Shown piece after piece: positions 1 through 15,394 of a stretch of DNA of 18,170 bases (positions within the stretch are counted from its first letter, which is position 1; the number at the start of each line of letters is the position of its first letter). Origin of the DNA: a virus. Taxonomy: Duplodnaviria > Heunggongvirae > Uroviricota > Caudoviricetes. The translations under genes and the position numbers were made by a program. The DNA is taken from the IMG/VR virus record IMGVR_UViG_2802429219_000014; one strand, written 5' to 3'. Below the pieces are notes generated by a model. It was not told the origin of the DNA. It saw only the letters and a list, made by a program, of their open reading frames with translations, and made no database searches.

Positions 1-1236
1 CTACGATAACCGCGCATTCAACATGGCTACCTGTTCGTCGTTCATGTCATCAATCCACATACCGTAAATTTCATACACCATCTGCGCAGTTTCATGCCCC
101 ATCTGGCTGGCTATAAACGCCGGGTTCGCTCCTGCCGTCAACAGCCAGCAGGCAAAAGTATGCCGCGTATGGTACGGATTACGGCGGCGAATACCAGCAC
201 GTTTTACTGCTGCATTCCATCTCGCACCCAAACTGCTTACCGAGTAATAAGGTTTCTGTTTTCCGTTACACACTCTGGGCATGAAAACAAAATGCAGTTT
301 TTGCTTTTCGGTTCTGCCGTACTCCCGATGATAAAAAGTGATTTCGCTTTTGCGATGATGCCCGGTCAGTTTGTATTGCTCCTTCAGTGCTTCAAGAGCA
401 GGCTGCAGTAGTGTTACTGTCCGGATCCCGGCATTTGTTTTTGGGGGACCGAACATATCAAGTATCGTCAGGTTTCTTCTGACATTCACTATTCCCTTTT
501 CGAGATCCACATCCTCCCACGCCAGAGCTGCCAGTTCCCCGTGACGAAGTCCTGAGTAAACGGCAAATTTCCACAAGTTCTGGCTCTGTCCTTTTTCACT
601 TTCCATTAATGCATTGAATTCTGTTTTAGATAACGGATCAGGCTTTATTCTGTTTCGCTGTAATTTTTTTACTCCTTCAAATGGTTTGGTTGATATAAAT
701 CCCGACTGATACGCAAAACGCAACAGCGAACAGAGCAGGGCGATATAGTTATCAACTGTGCGCACGGTTCTTCCTTTTTTGTTGGATCTTGGATTATCCA
801 GGTAAAGCGTTTCTCCATGCAGCAGTTCATTCCGGTAGTTTAAGATATCGCTATAACGAATATGTGATATCGGGGTACTTTCACAAATTATTATTCTGAG
901 TGTTTTTAATTGTGATTTCGTTTTCTTCATTGTGTTTGTTGTTAACTCTGTCTCTTTAATTTTTGTCCAGATATCACAAAGCTCTCCGAACGTTTTTATG
1001 ACTCTCGTTGTCACCATTTTTGCCCCAGTGCTGGACTGGGGAAAACGTCTTAAATACTCAAATTCACCGGAGTTTATTTCATGAACTATCAGCGCTCTTA
1101 AATTTCCGGCCTTTTTAATATTACTGTTTGTAATCTCCCAGCCTTTTAATGTTTCCCGACATCGTTTTCCTCGAAACATGAACCAGATGCGAATGTATCT
1201 ACCTCTAATCTCGACACCTGTTGGTAATTTAGACAT
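1..1236 (-). CDS. intR: Tyrosine recombinase, Rac prophage integrase (411 aa); stop codon is at the first bases of the window
   Basis: Complete 411-aa ORF; size, sequence recollection and position at the head of the int-xis-ralR-recT-recE block match Rac IntR. No search run. Confidence 0.9.
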   Translation of the reverse strand: MSKLPTGVEIRGRYIRIWFMFRGKRCRETLKGWEITNSNIKKAGNLRALIVHEINSGEFEYLRRFPQSSTGAKMVTTRVIKTFGELCDIWTKIKETELTTNTMKKTKSQLKTLRIIICESTPISHIRYSDILNYRNELLHGETLYLDNPRSNKKGRTVRTVDNYIALLCSLLRFAYQSGFISTKPFEGVKKLQRNRIKPDPLSKTEFNALMESEKGQSQNLWKFAVYSGLRHGELAALAWEDVDLEKGIVNVRRNLTILDMFGPPKTNAGIRTVTLLQPALEALKEQYKLTGHHRKSEITFYHREYGRTEKQKLHFVFMPRVCNGKQKPYYSVSSLGARWNAAVKRAGIRRRNPYHTRHTFACWLLTAGANPAFIASQMGHETAQMVYEIYGMWIDDMNDEQVAMLNARLS

Positions 1237-1237
1237 A

Positions 1238-1453
1238 TCATGAGTCTTTGATAAACTGATTTATCTTTGGATAGTTGTACCAGATAATCCCTCGTTTGCT
1301 GTCTGGCTTACCTAAAGGAGATACTCGTTTGAAGTGGAAGCCCTCCACCCAACAGTTCTGGCGGTATGCTTCAATTTGTCTGGCCCCCAGACCAGTGCGA
1401 AGCATCAGGCCGTATTCAACCATCCACTCTTCATTAAAGATTACTTGTGCCAT
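1238..1453 (-). CDS. xisR: Excisionase-like protein (71 aa); an in-frame upstream ATG at 1477 would give 79 aa
   Basis: Small ORF directly upstream of int, stop 1 nt from the int start; sequence recalled as Rac YdaQ/XisR. Start chosen to give the 71-aa form. Confidence 0.75.
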
Positions 1454-1531
1454 CGCATCACCTCTGGCAGGCGCCAATGTTAGACTGAAATTGACGCCCG
1501 ATGTTGATTATTAATAATCAGCTATGAAGTT

Positions 1532-1741
1532 TTAATTTGAATACAATGCAATTCTCGAGGACTGAAGTTTCTCGCAATTAAAATTTATCAGTTTTACTTT
1601 CTGCTCTCTGGAAACGCCTGCTTCTTTTTTACCTGAGAGCATTTTTTTGCATTCTGATTTCGTTAGTTTAGATTTTGAATATCTTGTCCAGTTAGTAGGA
1701 GTGCCACATTCCTTTTCAATAGTGGCGGTAATTTTATACAT
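1532..1741 (-). CDS. ydaC: Rac prophage small protein YdaC-like (69 aa)
   Basis: ATG at 1741 preceded by a strong SD (GGAGGTG on the coding strand); overlaps the ralR 3' end by 8 nt; position matches K-12 Rac ydaC. Confidence 0.65.
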   Translation of the reverse strand: MYKITATIEKECGTPTNWTRYSKSKLTKSECKKMLSGKKEAGVSREQKVKLINFNCEKLQSSRIALYSN

Positions 1742-1928
1742 GAACACCTCCATTATTATTTCCAGTGGTTCGTTTATTCCATCTTTCGAGTGCTTCTTTT
1801 TCACTTCCACCATAACCGGTTCGGGATTCGCATCCGTTACACTTCGCTCGGTAATATCCTGAAATGGCTTTCACCGTTACTGATGGACAACCACAAAATG
1901 GACATGGTTTAACATTGTCATATCTCAT
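1734..1928 (-). CDS. ralR: Restriction alleviation / type I toxin RalR (Lar-like, 64 aa, Cys-rich)
   Basis: 64-aa product MRYDNVKPCPFCGC...NNNGGVHV with CxxC...CxxC motifs, recalled as RalR; located just upstream of recT as in Rac. Confidence 0.8.
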   Translation of the reverse strand: MRYDNVKPCPFCGCPSVTVKAISGYYRAKCNGCESRTGYGGSEKEALERWNKRTTGNNNGGVHV

Positions 1929-1984
1929 AATTTTTCTCATAAAAAATATTTCAAGTTGGCGGTGCATTACACCGCCAGGCTGAA

Positions 1985-2794
1985 TTATTCCTCTGAATTA
2001 TCGATTACACTGTATTCCCCGGTTAATACAGAGGAATCTGCAGGATCGATTGTCAGTGGTTCCTTTTCATCCATTGATACTGCACGCTGGATCTCAATTG
2101 ATACGGGCAGATATTTGAACAGGCGACGAATAGCCGTTTTCTTTGCCATTTCTTCCCAGTGAGTTACCCACGGCCCGTTATTACCAGCTTTACTCAGGCT
2201 GCGCACCAGCTCAATCTGTTTGCGCGTCATAACTTCAAACTGAGTACCTCCGTCTTTCAGTCTTGCGACAGCATAGACGTGGGTAACCGGGGCATCTTCG
2301 TTTTCTCCCGGGCGGTGTATTAACTTTTCATCAAGGCCAAATTCGAAGCTAAACTCGTCACCTTCACGGACAACACGGGCTGACAGGCTGGCGATTTGAC
2401 CAGAACGGCGAGCCAGATCAATCATGCCGCGATAGCCAATGATTAGCTGAACGTTCTTTTTACCGCTCTTTTCGTTTTTATTACCAAAAGGCAGTAAATA
2501 TGCATGACCGAGGGCGCTACCTGGCTCAAGTCCGAGCTGTGAACACTGTACGATCGCACTGACAAAACTCATAGTGTCACAGTTTCCTAACGCCGGAACT
2601 TTACGAATTTCTGTGGTGGCGATACGGATCATACGTTCAGCCGTCATATGGCGTGGAAGAGCTGCTGCCAGTTGCTCTTTCATTGATGGCTGGTTAATAA
2701 AACTAATCACGTCGCTATTTTTAACTGCTGCTGGTGCACGGTTTCCCTGAGTTTTTTGCAGATCGGCTTTTGCGATTGGTGGTTGCTTAGTCAT
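1985..2794 (-). CDS. recT: RecT single-strand annealing recombinase (269 aa)
   Basis: 269-aa ORF from the internal ATG (MTKQPPIAK...); size and sequence match RecT; start is 8 nt inside the recE 3' end. Confidence 0.9.
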
Positions 2795-5387
2795 TTGCAT
2801 ATTCCTTAGCCCAGCGGGGCAGTGATAATGTCTTAATAGCTGGCCATTCATCGGTATTCAGGCAGTCAGACAGGGTTCGCAGATTGCGGTGATATTCCTG
2901 TTGACCTGCCAGTTTTGCTTCTTCGCCCATCATGAAAATTTCAACCGGATAACGTCCGCATTCAATAGTTGTGCTGGCAACCAGAAAAACGAAAGTTGGC
3001 TGCACTCCAAACTGTGCTTCATAACCGTCACTGTAGAATGCATCCTGAACGTGATAGCGGTAGTCGTAATAAGCGGTTTTGAATCGTTGAATATCCGCCG
3101 TAGTTTTCACGTCCATGATCCAGTGAAATTCAGGGATAATTTTGTCCGGACGGCACCGACACAAAATTCCTGTTTCAGGATCTTCCCAGTAAATTGATGA
3201 TTCAGCGTGTCCGGCGCTTTCAACAAGCCATTGCCCCAGCGGCAAAGCCATAACGCTTTGATACATGAGTTCAATTTTCCGGCCTTCTTCCGCAGTGATA
3301 ACCGTTTTTCCTGTGCTTGCGCATTCCATCAGAAACGCTTTCTCTTCTTCTTTTCCGGCGTTTGTACGGCGGTTAAATTCAGGTGCTACGATAAAGCGGT
3401 TACTGAATTCTTCCGGTTCAAGTACCCGGCAGTGGAAAGCGGTTCCTAAATCGAGCGTTTTTGTCTTTGTGGTGTCCACGGGGGCATTTTTACGCCACAA
3501 ATATAGTGCCGGAGTATCAGCAATGTCATCGAGCTGAGACTTACTGACACCGGGACCCGCGTGGTAATTCTCATTCGAAATTCCGTAATAAATACCTGGC
3601 TCTATGTCTTCTACGATTACGGGATCTGCGACTTCGCCAGTTTCATCACTGCAATCGCGATGCGGATCGCTGCCAGCATTCTCATTGTGCGGATGTTCAG
3701 CGCCTTCCATTTCCTCCGGATCATTTTCCTTAGCTTCAACCTGACTCTCTTCATCGAATGTTTCCTGGTATGTTGCGTCGCCCATCACCGCACCACAGTC
3801 AGGGCAGTTATCCCCGCCAGTCTGGCCGCAGGCATTGCAGGCTATTTCCGGTTCCTGTTGCACTACTGGCTCAGGTTGATTCATATCCGGGCTGGTTTTT
3901 TCCGTTTCTGGCTGGTTCTGGTACACAGAGTCGCGAGTCTGGATCCCCTTTACCCATTTCGGATCGTTCGGGTCGCTAATTCCGTCAACAAATTCACCAC
4001 GTGATGCAGCAAGCAATTTATCGGCATCGACAGGATCTTTTGATGGAATGTTTTTCCGGGCTTCATGGAGTTCTGCCCGCAGTTCCTGATATTTCGCATC
4101 AACAGAATTTACCTGTGACTGAGCATCCAGCGGCTGCGTGTCCTGATGATGTTCAGTTGCGTCCGGTTCCATTGTTTCAGCCTCTCCCTGTTCAACTGCC
4201 GTTGTTCCAGATGGTTGCGGTTTTTCTTCATCATCCTGTTTTCCTTCTTCTGTTACTCGCTGCGGCATCGGGGCAGAGGAGCGACCGCAGGCAATATCCA
4301 CGATTTCCGGATCAGGGTTGGCATGATCGGTTTCAGTCAGTACTTTGTTCAGATATTCAGTGACGTGCGCGGGGATGACCTCGATCCCAATTGGTGCTTC
4401 TTTTACGGACGCAACCACGATGGCGCGGGAATAATCCAGCCCGCCAGGCATGGTGATGAATTTGTCGCGGAAAACAGAAAAGGGCGGTTTATTTTCAGCG
4501 ATAATTTCCTCAATGCGTTTAGCGTGTGCCGGATGAAGGTTATAGATGTCCAGATCCATTGAACGGGCCAGTACGCCAGTGGCTACGTCGCGCGCCAGTG
4601 ACGTCAGATCGTGTACGAAACCTTCGCCGCGATCGGTGAGGTTTCCGCCGCCAGCATTAGCACCGGAAGCCGTGCGAGTGATGTGTGAAACACGATTACC
4701 CTTCATCCACTCTTTTGTCAGCAGTCCTCGATCGGTGTAGTCAGCGTTCAGGTATGCTTCGAAAAAAGCAGTTATCAGTCCCAGGTTTGAATTACCAGGA
4801 TTAGGGAAAACTTTGTCAGTGTCACGAACCAGTTTGTGGAGTTCGCGAATTTCCAGCGGGTCGAGCAGGCTGGTTTTGTGGGAAACAGCCAGGGCAGTAA
4901 CAGCCGGTAGTTCTTCAGCCCGAGCAATGTGTAATGCCTGGAGTCCGTCGCGTGAAACGTGCGTTACCGGTTTTTCGCTGCCGTGTTGAGCAAGCCAACG
5001 AATGGGCAGTTCCTGGCCAGAAATTGGGAGTAGCATATTCTCCTCAATCTCAGTCATGTCTTCGCCGTTGACGTTGGTATTGCCTTGATAGTGAGCGTTG
5101 TCTGGTGCTGCTCCCGGTTTTAGTTCCCATGTCATGGAGTCTTTGCTGAGTTGATAGCGTTCACTCCAGGTAAAATCGATCTCACCTTCAGCGGGCAGGT
5201 CATTAACGACAGGAAAATTCGTGGCAACAGCTTTAAAATAGCTGCTCAGTTTTTTACCTGACTTAACGATCAGGTAGTCCAGAGTGGCACAGGTCGATTC
5301 AAAATCGTTGCTTGCCCACAGGACGACGTCAGGTTCACCGGATGATTTTTTCGCTTTCCGTAACAGGAAGAGTGGTTTTGTGCTCAT
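2787..5387 (-). CDS. recE: RecE exonuclease VIII (866 aa)
   Basis: 866-aa ORF with acidic/Pro-rich central linker region and C-terminal nuclease domain; size and order match Rac recE. Confidence 0.9.
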
Positions 5388-9783: not shown

Positions 9784-10530
9784 ATGAAAAATATTGCGGC
9801 AGGAGGCATTCTTGAACGTATCCGCAGACTGGCCCCGCCACATGTAACCGCCCCATTCAAAACGGTAGCGGAGTGGCGCGAGTGGCAACTTTCCGAAGGC
9901 CAGAAACGTTGTGAGGAGATCAACCGTCAGAATCGTCAGTTGCGGGTGGAAAAAATTCTGAATCGCTCTGGCATCCAGCCATTGCACCGCAAATGCTCGT
10001 TTGCGAATTACCAGGTGCAGAACGACGGTCAGCGATACGCGTTGAACCAGGCGAAATCTATCGCTGATGAACTGATGACCGGGTGTACAAATTTTGCGTT
10101 CAGCGGAAAACCTGGTACCGGAAAAAACCATCTGGCGGCGGCTATCGGGAATCGCCTGCTGAAAGATGGCCAGACAGTGATTGTGGTTACCGTGGCTGAT
10201 GTCATGAGTGCTCTACACGCCAGCTATGACGACGGGCAATCAGGCGAAAAATTTTTGCGGGAACTGTGCCAAGTGGATCTGCTGGTTCTTGATGAAATTG
10301 GCATTCAGCGCGAGACAAAAAACGAGCAGGTGGTGCTGCACCAGATTGTTGATCGCCGGACAGCGTCGATGCGCAGCGTGGGGATGCTGACAAACCTGAA
10401 CTATGAGGCCATGAAAACATTGCTCGGCGAGCGGATTATGGATCGCATGACCATGAACGGCGGGCGATGGGTGAATTTTAACTGGGAGAGCTGGCGTCCG
10501 AATGTCGTCCAGCCAGGAATTGCGAAGTGA
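9784..10530 (+). CDS. ydaV: DnaC/IstB-like AAA+ helicase loader YdaV (248 aa)
   Basis: Walker [16 protein letters not shown] and Walker [10 protein letters not shown] motifs visible in the translation. Confidence 0.85.
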
Positions 10531-10552
10531 TTTTTACCGGGAGGAAATTTTA

Positions 10553-11314
10553 ATGGAAACCGTTTTTGATGCACTGAAAGCAATGGGAAAAGCCACGTCG
10601 GTAGAACTGGCTGCGCGACTTGATATCAGTCGTGAAGAAGTGCTGAACGAGCTGTGGGAACTTAAAAAGGCTGGCTTCGTTGATAAAAGCGTATACACCT
10701 GGCGTGTGGCTGATAACAACGTTCAGCAGGAACAGCCAGAGCAGGCAGAACTGCCGGAAGAAACCACCACGGCAACAGTAGCGAAAATCTCAGAGTGCGA
10801 TTTAACCGCGACGATTGAACAACGTGGCCCACAAACGGCGGATGAACTGGCTACGTTTTTCGGCACCACATCACGCAAAGTGGCTTCAACGCTGGCAATG
10901 GCAATCAGCAAAGGCCGTCTGATTCGCGTTAATCAGAACGGTAAATTTCGTTACTGCATGCCGGGCGATGATTTACCAGCAGAGCCGAAAGCTGCATCGG
11001 TAACGGAAACTGATGGTAAAGCCTTTCCTCAACCAGCAGGTGTTGCGTTACCGGGACAGGAAGCTGCAATACAGGAAGATATTAAAACAGAAACTGTGGC
11101 GGACATTGTGCAGTCGTTGCCATCGTTTACCGAAACGCGAGCGGATGACCTCGTTCTGCCATCGCTGCATATGGCAAACCGCGAACTGCGTCGGGCGAAA
11201 AATCATGTCCAGAAGTGGGAGCGTGTCTGCGCCGCGCTGCGGGAGCTGAACAAGCACCGGGATATTGTTCGACTGATTACTGATTCTTCTCGCTGTGTTG
11301 CATCGGAAAAGTGA
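10553..11314 (+). CDS. ydaW: YdaW-like protein (253 aa), apparently intact, with two winged-helix-like segments
   Basis: Strong SD GGGAGG before the ATG at 10553; follows ydaV as in Rac, where the K-12 copy is recalled as a pseudogene. Confidence 0.65.
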
Positions 11315-11329
11315 TTGCCGGAGGCGCTT

Positions 11330-11746
11330 ATGGCAAAAGTATTTACACAAGAAGAGCGGGAAAAAATCAAGGGACAGGTTGTTGAGCTAGTACGCCGGAG
11401 TGGGCGCGAGACGTTACGGCAACTGGAAGCCAAGACAGGTGCGACAAGATATCTGATGAGCGTTCTCGCCAGAGAGCTGGTTGCCAGTGGCGATGTATAC
11501 AACTCTGGCTACGGGTTATTCCCGTCTGAACAGGCTCGTAAGGACTGGCAAAATGCCCGCAAAAAACTATCTAGGGCAAAGGTGAAGAAACCATCTGTGG
11601 TTGATCCGGACCTTATCTGGTCATTACCTGACGGAGAAATACGTCGTTATGACAGGCACCAAAACATAATTTGCTGTGAGTGCCGGAAGAGCGAAGTTAT
11701 GCAGCGCATACTGGCATTTTATCAGAGAAATTTTCGTTATTTATAG
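11330..11746 (+). CDS. Hypothetical protein (138 aa) with an N-terminal HTH/winged-helix-like segment
   Basis: SD CCGGAGG before the ATG at 11330; protein-like composition; no family recognised. Confidence 0.55.
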   Translation: MAKVFTQEEREKIKGQVVELVRRSGRETLRQLEAKTGATRYLMSVLARELVASGDVYNSGYGLFPSEQARKDWQNARKKLSRAKVKKPSVVDPDLIWSLPDGEIRRYDRHQNIICCECRKSEVMQRILAFYQRNFRYL

Positions 11747-11909
11747 ACGTTACTCGATTAAAGAGCATTAGTTCAGATGTGAATTGACATTTTCACGGCA
11801 CAGGATTGAGCTAGCGTGGTTGTCTGCTTTGTGTCAAAAGCAGATATTACCAGATTTAGACATCTATTCCCGATAGCCCTGCTCTGATGCTACACTCTGT
11901 GCTATTTTC

Positions 11910-12596
11910 ATGACCCCAATAAAAATATTTATGACTATTGCTGATTTCAAACGGCCTAAATTGGAGCTCCCAAACGGGGCAAACAAACTACTACTGCACT
12001 CTTGCTGTGCTCCATGTTCCGGTGAAGTGATGGAGGCGCTTCAGGCCTCGGGAATCGACTATACCATCTTTTTCTACAACCCGAACATTCATCCTCAGAA
12101 AGAGTATTTAATTCGTAAGGATGAGAATATTCGCTTTGCTGAACAACACGGCGTGCCATTTATTGATGCTGATTACGACACAGACAACTGGTTTGAACGT
12201 GCCAAAGGAATGGAATGGGAGCCCGAGAGGGGGATCCGTTGTACCATGTGTTTTGACATGCGTTTTGAGCGGACAGCGCTGTACGCTGCTGAAAATGGTT
12301 TCAGTGTGATCAGCAGTTCACTGGGCATTTCACGCTGGAAAAATATGCAGCAGGTTAACGACTGTGGGCGGCGAGCCGTCGCGCATTATCCGGGCATGGT
12401 GTACTGGGATTATAACTGGCGCAAGCAGGGCGGCTCGTCCCGCATGATTGAAATCAGCAAGCGCGAAAAATTCTATCAGCAGGAATATTGTGGCTGTGTG
12501 TATTCTCTGCGCGATACCAATCTACACCGCAAATCTCAGGGACGCCCTCTTATCAAAATTGGTCAACTCCACTACGGTAAAGAAGAGAAGGAGTGA
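11910..12596 (+). CDS. DUF208 / QueH-like (epoxyqueuosine reductase family) protein, 228 aa
   Basis: [11 protein letters not shown] motif near the N-terminus and CGCVYS near the C-terminus, recalled as DUF208/QueH signatures; no SD seen at either candidate ATG (11910 or 11931). Confidence 0.55.
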
Positions 12597-12628
12597 TTTT
12601 ATGGAGCACCTTTCTTATTGATTTCATA

Positions 12629-12657: not shown

Positions 12658-12833
12658 TGCTGCGGGTGCTTGAGGCTATCTGCCTCAGGCATGAACACCA
12701 AAAGGCAGATAGAGAAAAGCCCCAGTTAACATTACGCGTCCTGCAAGACGCTTAACATTAATCTGAGGCTCAATCTATGCTGAACACATGTAGGTTAGCC
12801 TCTTACGTGCCGAAAGGCAAGGAGAAGCAGGCT

Positions 12834-12989
12834 ATGAAGCAGCAAAAGGCGATGTTAATCGCCCTGATCGTCATCTGTTTAACCGTCATAGTGACGGCAC
12901 TGGTAACGAGGAAAGACCTCTGCGAGGTACGAATCCGAACCGGGCAGACGGAAGTCGCTGTCTTCACAGCTTACGAACCTGAGGAGTAA
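12834..12989 (+). CDS. hokD: Hok/Gef-family type I toxin (51 aa membrane peptide), HokD/RelF-like
   Basis: MKQQKAMLIALIVICLTVIVTALVTRKDLCEVRIRTGQTEVAVFTAYEPEE; single TM helix plus the conserved Hok C-terminal core; SD AAGGAG 9 nt before the ATG. Confidence 0.85.
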   Translation: MKQQKAMLIALIVICLTVIVTALVTRKDLCEVRIRTGQTEVAVFTAYEPEE

Positions 12990-15240: not shown

Positions 15241-15316
<76 letters not shown>

Positions 15317-15319
15317 TAT

Positions 15320-15394
<75 letters not shown>

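Follow-up and report, generated by a model that had tools for sequence, protein, structure and literature searches.

The window analyzed here is an 18,170-nt stretch of viral DNA (IMG/VR record IMGVR_UViG_2802429219_000014); all coordinates are window positions, on the plus strand unless stated otherwise. It is a Rac-type lambdoid prophage that carries queH, a gene which, judged from its sequence, very probably encodes a functional QueH-type reductase of epoxyqueuosine (oQ), the precursor of queuosine (Q) in tRNA. We further infer, with moderate confidence in the propositions taken jointly, that this QueH is active, that its own promoter allows expression in the lysogen, and that independence from cobalamin (vitamin B12) is the benefit for which the gene has been selected.

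Identity of the gene product

An open reading frame (ORF) at positions 11910-12596 on the plus strand encodes 228 amino acids (aa) and includes the motifs HSCCAPC (aa 30-36) and CGCVYS (aa 194-199). From these motifs, an earlier reading made from the sequence only had proposed a QueH-like (DUF208) protein. In a Pfam search, PF02677 (QueH, formerly DUF208) was the sole family matched, and the match was essentially full length (profile positions 1-174 of 175), with a score of 220.6 bits (E = 1.9e-65) against a cutoff of 23.5 bits. The QueH of Thermotoga maritima (PDB 7LC5) was found by sequence at E = 5e-22, and a search of 1.84 billion cluster representatives returned 2,516 relatives at a threshold of E <= 1e-10.

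From the best 150 of these 2,516 relatives we aligned 62 full-domain sequences, which were 35 to 74% identical. Residues in this alignment are numbered on the 221-aa protein that we regard as most likely (see below), whereas the motifs above are numbered on the 228-aa ORF. Six cysteines, C25, C26, C104, C107, C187, and C189, were invariant in 62/62 representatives and aligned to C9, C10, C87, C90, C169, and C171, respectively, of the T. maritima enzyme. The position of the seventh ligand, 29, is occupied by Cys in 59 representatives and by Asp in the other 3; the window protein has Cys29 (the last residue of CCAPC), and T. maritima QueH holds Asp13 at the equivalent position, a D13N mutant of which has been deposited as 9DCO. 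Thus, the full set of Cys ligands expected by the sequence-only reading was present, as was the profile match. When the window protein was counted in, 16 residues were invariant across the 63 aligned sequences, and it keeps all 16. The metal centers of QueH, according to Li et al. (2021), reportedly comprise a [4Fe-4S] cluster and a single iron.

The predicted fold pointed the same way. The AlphaFold2 (AF2) model of the protein had only moderate confidence (predicted local distance difference test score, 72; predicted template modeling score, 0.74). All of the top five Foldseek matches to this model in the PDB were nevertheless T. maritima QueH structures, among them the queuosine complex and the C9S and D13N mutants (E = 1e-9; target-normalized template modeling score, 0.79; root mean square deviation, 3.5 Å over 180 columns). 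TtuA and LarE, which have the adenine-nucleotide-alpha-hydrolase fold, came next, far behind at E ~1e-4.

The identification as such is already known from public annotation. The RefSeq name "epoxyqueuosine reductase QueH" stands on every E. coli record among the matches listed, including the sequence-identical protein of E. coli 042 (WP_021554705.1). Among deposited phage genomes, a close copy was found only in Escherichia phage HannyBb (95.6% aa identity), where it is annotated as hypothetical. The PHROGs family, phrog_3217, is labeled "unknown function" and was set aside as uninformative about function. Its profile, of 188 positions, covers the 228-aa ORF only from residue 41 on (Met41, MEALQ...), so that many phage gene calls seem to start at an internal methionine and to omit the CCAPC motif, which may explain why phage pipelines miss the QueH identity. 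A search of the accessible literature returned no discussion of prophage-borne QueH in E. coli, and the biology of the prophage-borne enzyme appears to have been unexamined so far. The gene identification itself therefore adds nothing new; the interest lies in what a second enzyme may do beside QueG, the reductase that E. coli already has.

Reading frame and start codon

Two in-frame start codons are available. ATG 11931 is conserved in all alleles, and both RefSeq and the chromosomal orthologs start at this position, whereas ATG 11910 reads ATT in the O7:H15 ST70 allele. For these reasons the true start is most likely ATG 11931, giving a protein of 221 aa, and positions 11910-11930 are probably 5' untranslated sequence rather than coding. 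The sequence-only reading had given a 228-aa protein; its ORF and both motifs stand, and the length was dropped in favor of 221 aa. That reading had also placed about 160 nt of noncoding DNA before the gene, which agrees with the 163 nt that we measured from the end of the DUF977 gene (11746) to ATG 11910; the gap to ATG 11931 is 184 nt. Table 1 lists the features of this region.

Table 1. Features in and around the queH cassette
Feature	Coordinates	Strand	Evidence and remarks
DUF977 family gene, upstream neighbor, last of the replication-region block	11315..11746	+	Pfam PF06163; RefSeq/GenBank; "Ren-like" in HannyBb
TTGACA hexamer, flank feature outside the cassette	11784..11789	+	Kept in queH-less A20; absent from queH-positive loci L009, L010, and L011
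Hairpin downstream of DUF977	11821..11846	+	10-bp stem including one G-U pair (11821-11830/11837-11846), 6-nt loop
Minimal queH cassette: candidate promoter, short A/U-rich leader, ORF	11882..12600	+	Common to all prophage backbones compared
TGCTACACT, candidate extended -10 (TGn + TACACT)	11888..11896	+	34 nt before ATG 11931; without recognizable -35
In-frame upstream extension, 7 extra codons (start in the sequence-only reading)	11910..11930	+	ATG 11910 not conserved
queH coding sequence (CDS), epoxyqueuosine reductase QueH	11931..12596	+	221 aa plus stop; PF02677, 7lc5 match, RefSeq, start conservation, dN/dS
hokD/sok type I toxin-antitoxin, downstream neighbor	12664..12989	+	Rfam RF01794, 119.6 bits, sok 12664-12839; hokD CDS 12834-12989 mapped from E. 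coli 042 RefSeq

Selection and distribution

We compared five E. coli/phage alleles from different prophages. The ratio of nonsynonymous to synonymous divergence (dN/dS) was 0.02 to 0.075 among them, with dS reaching 0.45, and 0.02 to 0.04 against the chromosomal orthologs for which dS was unsaturated (Scandinavium and Kluyvera). The five alleles and the HannyBb copy are all intact. The gene is carried by 190 IMG/VR viral contigs; intactness, promoter, and neighbor counts were made on 80 IMG/VR loci, 79 of which hold an intact copy.

Among 5,426 complete E. coli genomes, 995 (18%) carry the same or a nearly identical queH, nearly always as a single chromosomal copy, and at least 80% of the gene is present in 985 of these carriers. 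Truncated copies are few, an example being that of strain CH4784, with 65% coverage. The carriers include O157:H7, ST131, HUSEC2011 (O104:H4 outbreak-type), APEC O1, and 042.

Borders of the cassette and its cargo status

Comparison among prophages delimited a short mobile segment. The blastn blocks spanned 11807-12602 against the Qin-type and HannyBb loci (95-3322, HannyBb) and 11882-12600 against O7:H15 ST70. Strain A20, which lacks queH, has the same DUF977 and hokD flanks; its match on the left runs to 11849 and resumes on the right at 12599, with about 490 nt of unrelated sequence in place of queH. The block ends and the A20 flank together fix the right edge of the cassette 3 to 6 nt past the stop codon. 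A terminator scan found no site near the 3' end of queH or between DUF977 and queH, and homology between phages ends at this same right edge.

The slot after DUF977 is shared by Rac-type, Qin-type, and HannyBb backbones, and the neighbors vary. The downstream neighbor was hok/sok at 67/80 loci and a cytosine methyltransferase with an NgoMIV-family endonuclease at 13/80; a DUF1971 gene occurs there elsewhere. At the O157:H7 locus Z1811, queH is followed by genes for a DNA cytosine methyltransferase and an NgoMIV-family type II restriction endonuclease, with no hok/sok. Since the downstream genes differ among prophages, the slot after the replication genes looks like a hotspot of cargo swapping. 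The gene had been described as prophage cargo in the sequence-only reading, which suggested comparing neighborhoods across Rac-like prophages. That comparison, with one slot, changing neighbors, and a queH-less prophage that has the same flanks, upheld the description, as did the Rac-type character of the window, the presence or absence of the gene among related prophages, and its occurrence in a cultured phage and in the IMG/VR contigs.

Upstream signals

Two elements in the noncoding gap, a TTGACA hexamer and a stem-loop, had been singled out from the sequence. Both are there, the stem having 10 bp at 11821-11846 rather than 8 bp, and both are kept in queH-less A20; thus, they are part of the sequence that follows DUF977 and are not queH-specific regulatory elements. 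In a scan for consensus promoters, TTGACA had no -10 partner. As it is, moreover, not included in the conserved cassette and occurs even where a prophage has no queH, we rejected it as the queH promoter. The hairpin found no support as a terminator or regulator of queH: it has no T-run and was not called by the terminator scan, and the predicted folding of the 5' region was no more stable than that of shuffled sequence (z = -1.5). Comparison among prophages gave mixed evidence: A20 has a compensatory change (U-A to C-G and G-U to G-C), O157:H7 Z1811 two disrupting mismatches. The site of the hairpin corresponds approximately to the position of lambda tR2, after ren and before the nin region.

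A better promoter candidate than TTGACA is TGCTACACT, which lies inside the minimal cassette, at its left edge. It is exact in 4/5 E. coli/phage alleles and in 80/80 IMG/VR loci; the O7:H15 allele has TGCTACACA in its place. The related sequence TGCTACA(C/A)T precedes the start codon of chromosomal queH, at -43/-44 in Scandinavium, Kluyvera, Enterobacter quasihormaechei, and Symbiopectobacterium and at -40 in Erwinia; it is the sole block conserved among these upstream regions, which have otherwise diverged. Near-variants occur in two further Enterobacter species. Because the element is conserved with chromosomal orthologs amid diverged surroundings, we infer that the cassette carries the native promoter of the gene. 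A scan for sigma-70 promoters found no full promoter upstream of queH. The conserved element suggests that queH could be expressed from a repressed prophage.

Chromosomal relatives and origin

The closest proteins outside Escherichia, with 89 to 92% aa identity, were those of Scandinavium, Kluyvera (91%), and Enterobacter, followed at 80 to 86% by those of Erwinia, Pantoea, Providencia, Photorhabdus, Serratia, and others. The Scandinavium and Enterobacter copies lie among metabolic genes in a nonphage setting, and the flanks of Kluyvera queH gave no matches to phage genes. An ordinary chromosomal setting, with no phage genes detected nearby, was found in Scandinavium, E. quasihormaechei, Erwinia, Providencia, Photorhabdus, Pantoea, Ewingella, and Gibbsiella. 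In Providencia, queH adjoins tmcA. In Erwinia, it has purL on one side and a gene for a HAMP/HisKA histidine kinase on the other, followed by genes for a lipoprotein and a sigma-54 response regulator and by glnB, hmp, and glyA. E. coli presumably has the order purL-glrK-qseG-glrR-glnB-hmp-glyA with no gene in the purL gap; if so, Escherichia either lost queH at this site or never acquired it there. The only non-E. coli relative examined that shares the prophage context is the 100% identical copy of Escherichia albertii.

Near-identical relatives in chromosomal settings indicate that the phage gene was copied from a housekeeping queH of Enterobacterales and has hardly diverged from it. This QueH subfamily evolves slowly, and alphaproteobacterial and xanthomonad proteins are still 76 to 80% identical. 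Even the closest chromosomal copy sampled has 86% nucleotide identity, with a dS of ~0.95; a recent capture from a sampled species is therefore unsupported, and no recent donor was identified. QueH of the gammaproteobacterial type, at 77 to 86% identity, also appears under the record titles Bacillus subtilis SK7B5, Candidatus Avacidaminococcus (a Firmicutes metagenome-assembled genome), Pseudomonas lundensis, and Pseudomonas piscis, probably as a result of contamination, mis-binning, or horizontal transfer.

Proposed role in the lysogen

In the queuosine pathway, the tRNAs for Asp, Asn, His, and Tyr receive preQ1 from Tgt at position 34, and QueA turns it into epoxyqueuosine. E. coli makes no cobalamin de novo. 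The oQ-to-Q step in E. coli is reportedly cobamide dependent, in the wording of the title of Frey et al. (1988). This step, the reduction of epoxyqueuosine to queuosine, is carried out by QueG or QueH (PMC9508795). QueG is cobalamin and [4Fe-4S] dependent (PMC4646009, PMC5175355, PMC11841063), whereas DUF208/QueH is described, where PMC5615194 cites Zallot et al. 2017, as cobalamin independent and unrelated to QueG. We found queG in 5,426/5,426 E. coli genomes, including 042, which carries an identical queH. As QueG, which every E. coli has, depends on a cofactor that the bacterium does not make de novo, the prophage queH most likely serves as a B12-independent backup.

The proposed course of events is as follows. 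The cassette would have been captured from a chromosome of the Enterobacteriaceae and would now circulate among lambdoid phages of Escherichia (Rac-type, Qin-type, and HannyBb-like), in the variable slot that follows their replication genes. Its native extended -10 would drive queH in the lysogen. The prophage QueH, a cobalamin-independent iron-sulfur enzyme, would reduce oQ34 to Q34 on the Asp, Asn, His, and Tyr tRNAs, so that the last queuosine step of the lysogen would be freed from an external supply of B12.

Several points weigh against this proposal. The TGnTAnnnT pattern is expected by chance about 1.2 times per kb, the candidate -10 has no -35 partner, and the element of the O7:H15 allele ends in A, which should weaken it. 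The gene has no terminator of its own and lies in a rightward early operon, so that expression by read-through, and at induction only, is just as possible. Corrinoids are generally plentiful in the gut, where a benefit from coping with scarce B12 may be small. Deletion of queG had no growth phenotype in one reported condition (PMC11841063), and no experiment on this allele turned up in the accessible literature. Finally, release 20 of NCBIfam gave no match for the protein, though the Pfam match is unambiguous; the PGAP/RefSeq name must therefore come via another evidence rule, and we did not take the missing match as evidence against QueH membership.

If the lysogen benefits as proposed, approximately 1 in 5 E. 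coli strains would fully modify their Asp, Asn, His, and Tyr tRNAs in B12-poor conditions, and the others would stall at epoxyqueuosine. A broader generalization, which we advance only tentatively, is that temperate E. coli phages effect a lysogenic conversion of tRNA modification by means of a self-promoted, cobalamin-independent QueH. Such a strongly conserved, B12-independent replacement, in about 18% of strains, O157:H7, ST131, and the O104:H4-type among them, would give a clear example of host tRNA modification altered by a prophage.

Alternative roles

The same enzyme might instead serve the phage. Induction or infection would then switch on queH, mainly through transcripts that read through from the early rightward promoter, and the enzyme would complete queuosine on host tRNAs during phage translation. 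The arrangement of the genes is compatible with such a role: queH is co-oriented with, and directly downstream of, the cro-like, replication, and DUF977 genes, no terminator-like site separates it from DUF977 or follows it, and the cassette ends within a few nucleotides (3 to 6) of the stop codon. The viable phage HannyBb retains queH, and a 2026 preprint on Shewanella phage infection describes upregulation of the oQ-to-Q step and a rise in the Q/oQ ratio. A promoter-like element inherited from chromosomal genes, however, argues for transcription independent of the phage circuit. Moreover, the prophage's own tRNAs, Thr-UGU and Gly-UCC, are not substrates for queuosine, and a difference in decoding between oQ and Q is not established. 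We consider a mainly phage-serving role possible but unlikely; lytic and lysogenic roles are not mutually exclusive and can coexist.

A change of substrate, from oQ in tRNA to a modified base of phage DNA or another epoxide or nucleotide, is decidedly improbable. The sequence-only reading had allowed for either tRNA or nucleic acid modification. Phages do reuse enzymes of the 7-deazaguanine pathway for DNA modification (PMC6884629), and in some prophages queH adjoins a DNA methyltransferase and restriction enzyme pair. Yet the protein is 89 to 92% identical to the chromosomal QueH of related genera, it is under selection as strong as that between chromosomal orthologs, and it keeps all family-invariant residues. 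Neither a DpdA/TGT-like gene nor a gene for preQ0 synthesis was found among the annotations of the matching 042 prophage or in Pfam scans of the window ORFs; with these partner genes absent from the prophage, the DNA modification part of the earlier idea lacks support. Hutinet et al. 2019 found no QueA, QueG, or QueH homologs in the viruses that they analyzed, the DNA-modifying phages included (PMC6884629). A role in defense was rejected, as the QueH protein matched none of the PADLOC defense models.

That queH is a neutral or decaying passenger of illegitimate recombination is the least probable reading and, on sequence grounds, strongly disfavored: although queG is universal and makes the gene redundant, about 82% of E. 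coli genomes do without it, and a few copies are truncated (as in CH4784), the low dN/dS among phage-borne alleles despite their synonymous divergence, the near-complete retention of the gene in carrier genomes and IMG/VR loci, and the preservation of all catalytic residues bespeak a strong, long-standing purifying selection that rules out decay.

Prophage context

The left end of the prophage comprises intR, xisR, ralR/RalA, recT, recE, kilR, and sieB. It continues with a repressor/cro-like pair, ydaT, ydaU (DUF1376), ydaV (IstB/DnaC-like ATPase), the DUF1627 and DUF977 genes, and queH. After queH come sok/hokD, genes for DUF1367, YbcO, and DUF1133 (a Q-like antiterminator), tRNA-Thr(UGU), tRNA-Gly(UCC), and the holin and lysozyme genes. 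The placement of queH between the replication genes and a hok locus, as originally described, was thus correct, with ydaU/ydaV, DUF1627, and DUF977 before it and sok/hokD after it.

Over the 1 kb around queH, identity to both E. coli 042 and APEC O1 is 100%, and the 042 prophage adjoins ttcA, the classical site of Rac attachment. Taken in full, the window is mosaic: the best complete E. coli genomes match 89 to 93% of it, and none matches more than 93% in one place. The recE ORF (2787-5387) encodes 866 aa in the window versus 1,007 aa in E. coli 042.

A search of the whole window with Rfam at gathering thresholds found only RalA, sok, and two tRNAs, and no riboswitch or other RNA element near queH. 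The small RNA RalA, at 1557-1735, is a full-length match to RF02694 (218.5 bits); it is the antitoxin of the RalR type I pair and is expected in a Rac-type prophage. The genes for tRNA-Thr(UGU) and tRNA-Gly(UCC), at 15241-15316 and 15320-15394, lie between the DUF1133 gene and the lysis genes. Since neither tRNA is a queuosine substrate (these are tRNAs with GUN anticodons), the prophage tRNA genes are not functionally linked to queH. The N-terminal ~60 residues of the DUF1627 protein (10502-11311) matched several Pfam helix-turn-helix families and the winged-helix regions of PADLOC models of the CARF/Csa3 type (E ~6e-5), but weakly and always below the cutoffs; this part is probably a mere winged helix-turn-helix DNA-binding domain.

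Comparison with known systems

The prophage gene most closely resembles the chromosomal queH of Enterobacterales, with which it shares the start codon, both terminal extensions, and TGCTACA(C/A)T about 43 nt upstream. The chromosomal genes lie among ordinary genes, whereas the prophage copy is confined to about 18% of E. coli genomes. T. maritima QueH (PDB 7LC5, 7LC7, and 9DEU) has the same predicted fold and the same six-Cys pattern, CC...CxxC...CGC, but is only ~30% identical and has Asp13 where the window protein has a Cys as the seventh ligand. Compared with the T. maritima enzyme, the window protein has an N-terminal extension of ~20 residues and a C-terminal one of ~25, both common to proteobacterial chromosomal QueH.

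QueG catalyzes the same reaction on the same tRNAs (PMC5175355) and is co-resident in the genomes that carry queH. It differs from QueH in protein family and fold and in its need for cobalamin, and it is encoded by a core gene, whereas queH is accessory and phage borne.

Like phage morons, queH is present or absent at one fixed slot, with the replication module on one side and a nin-like module on the other, where the cargo varies (hok, a restriction-modification pair, or DUF1971), and its cassette may likewise carry a promoter of its own. Unlike morons, the queH cassette has no terminator of its own and ends just after the stop codon. The phage systems for 7-deazaguanine DNA modification (DpdA plus FolE/QueD/QueE/QueC) similarly place genes related to the queuosine pathway in a phage; unlike the enzymes of those systems, QueH acts after the base has been inserted into tRNA.

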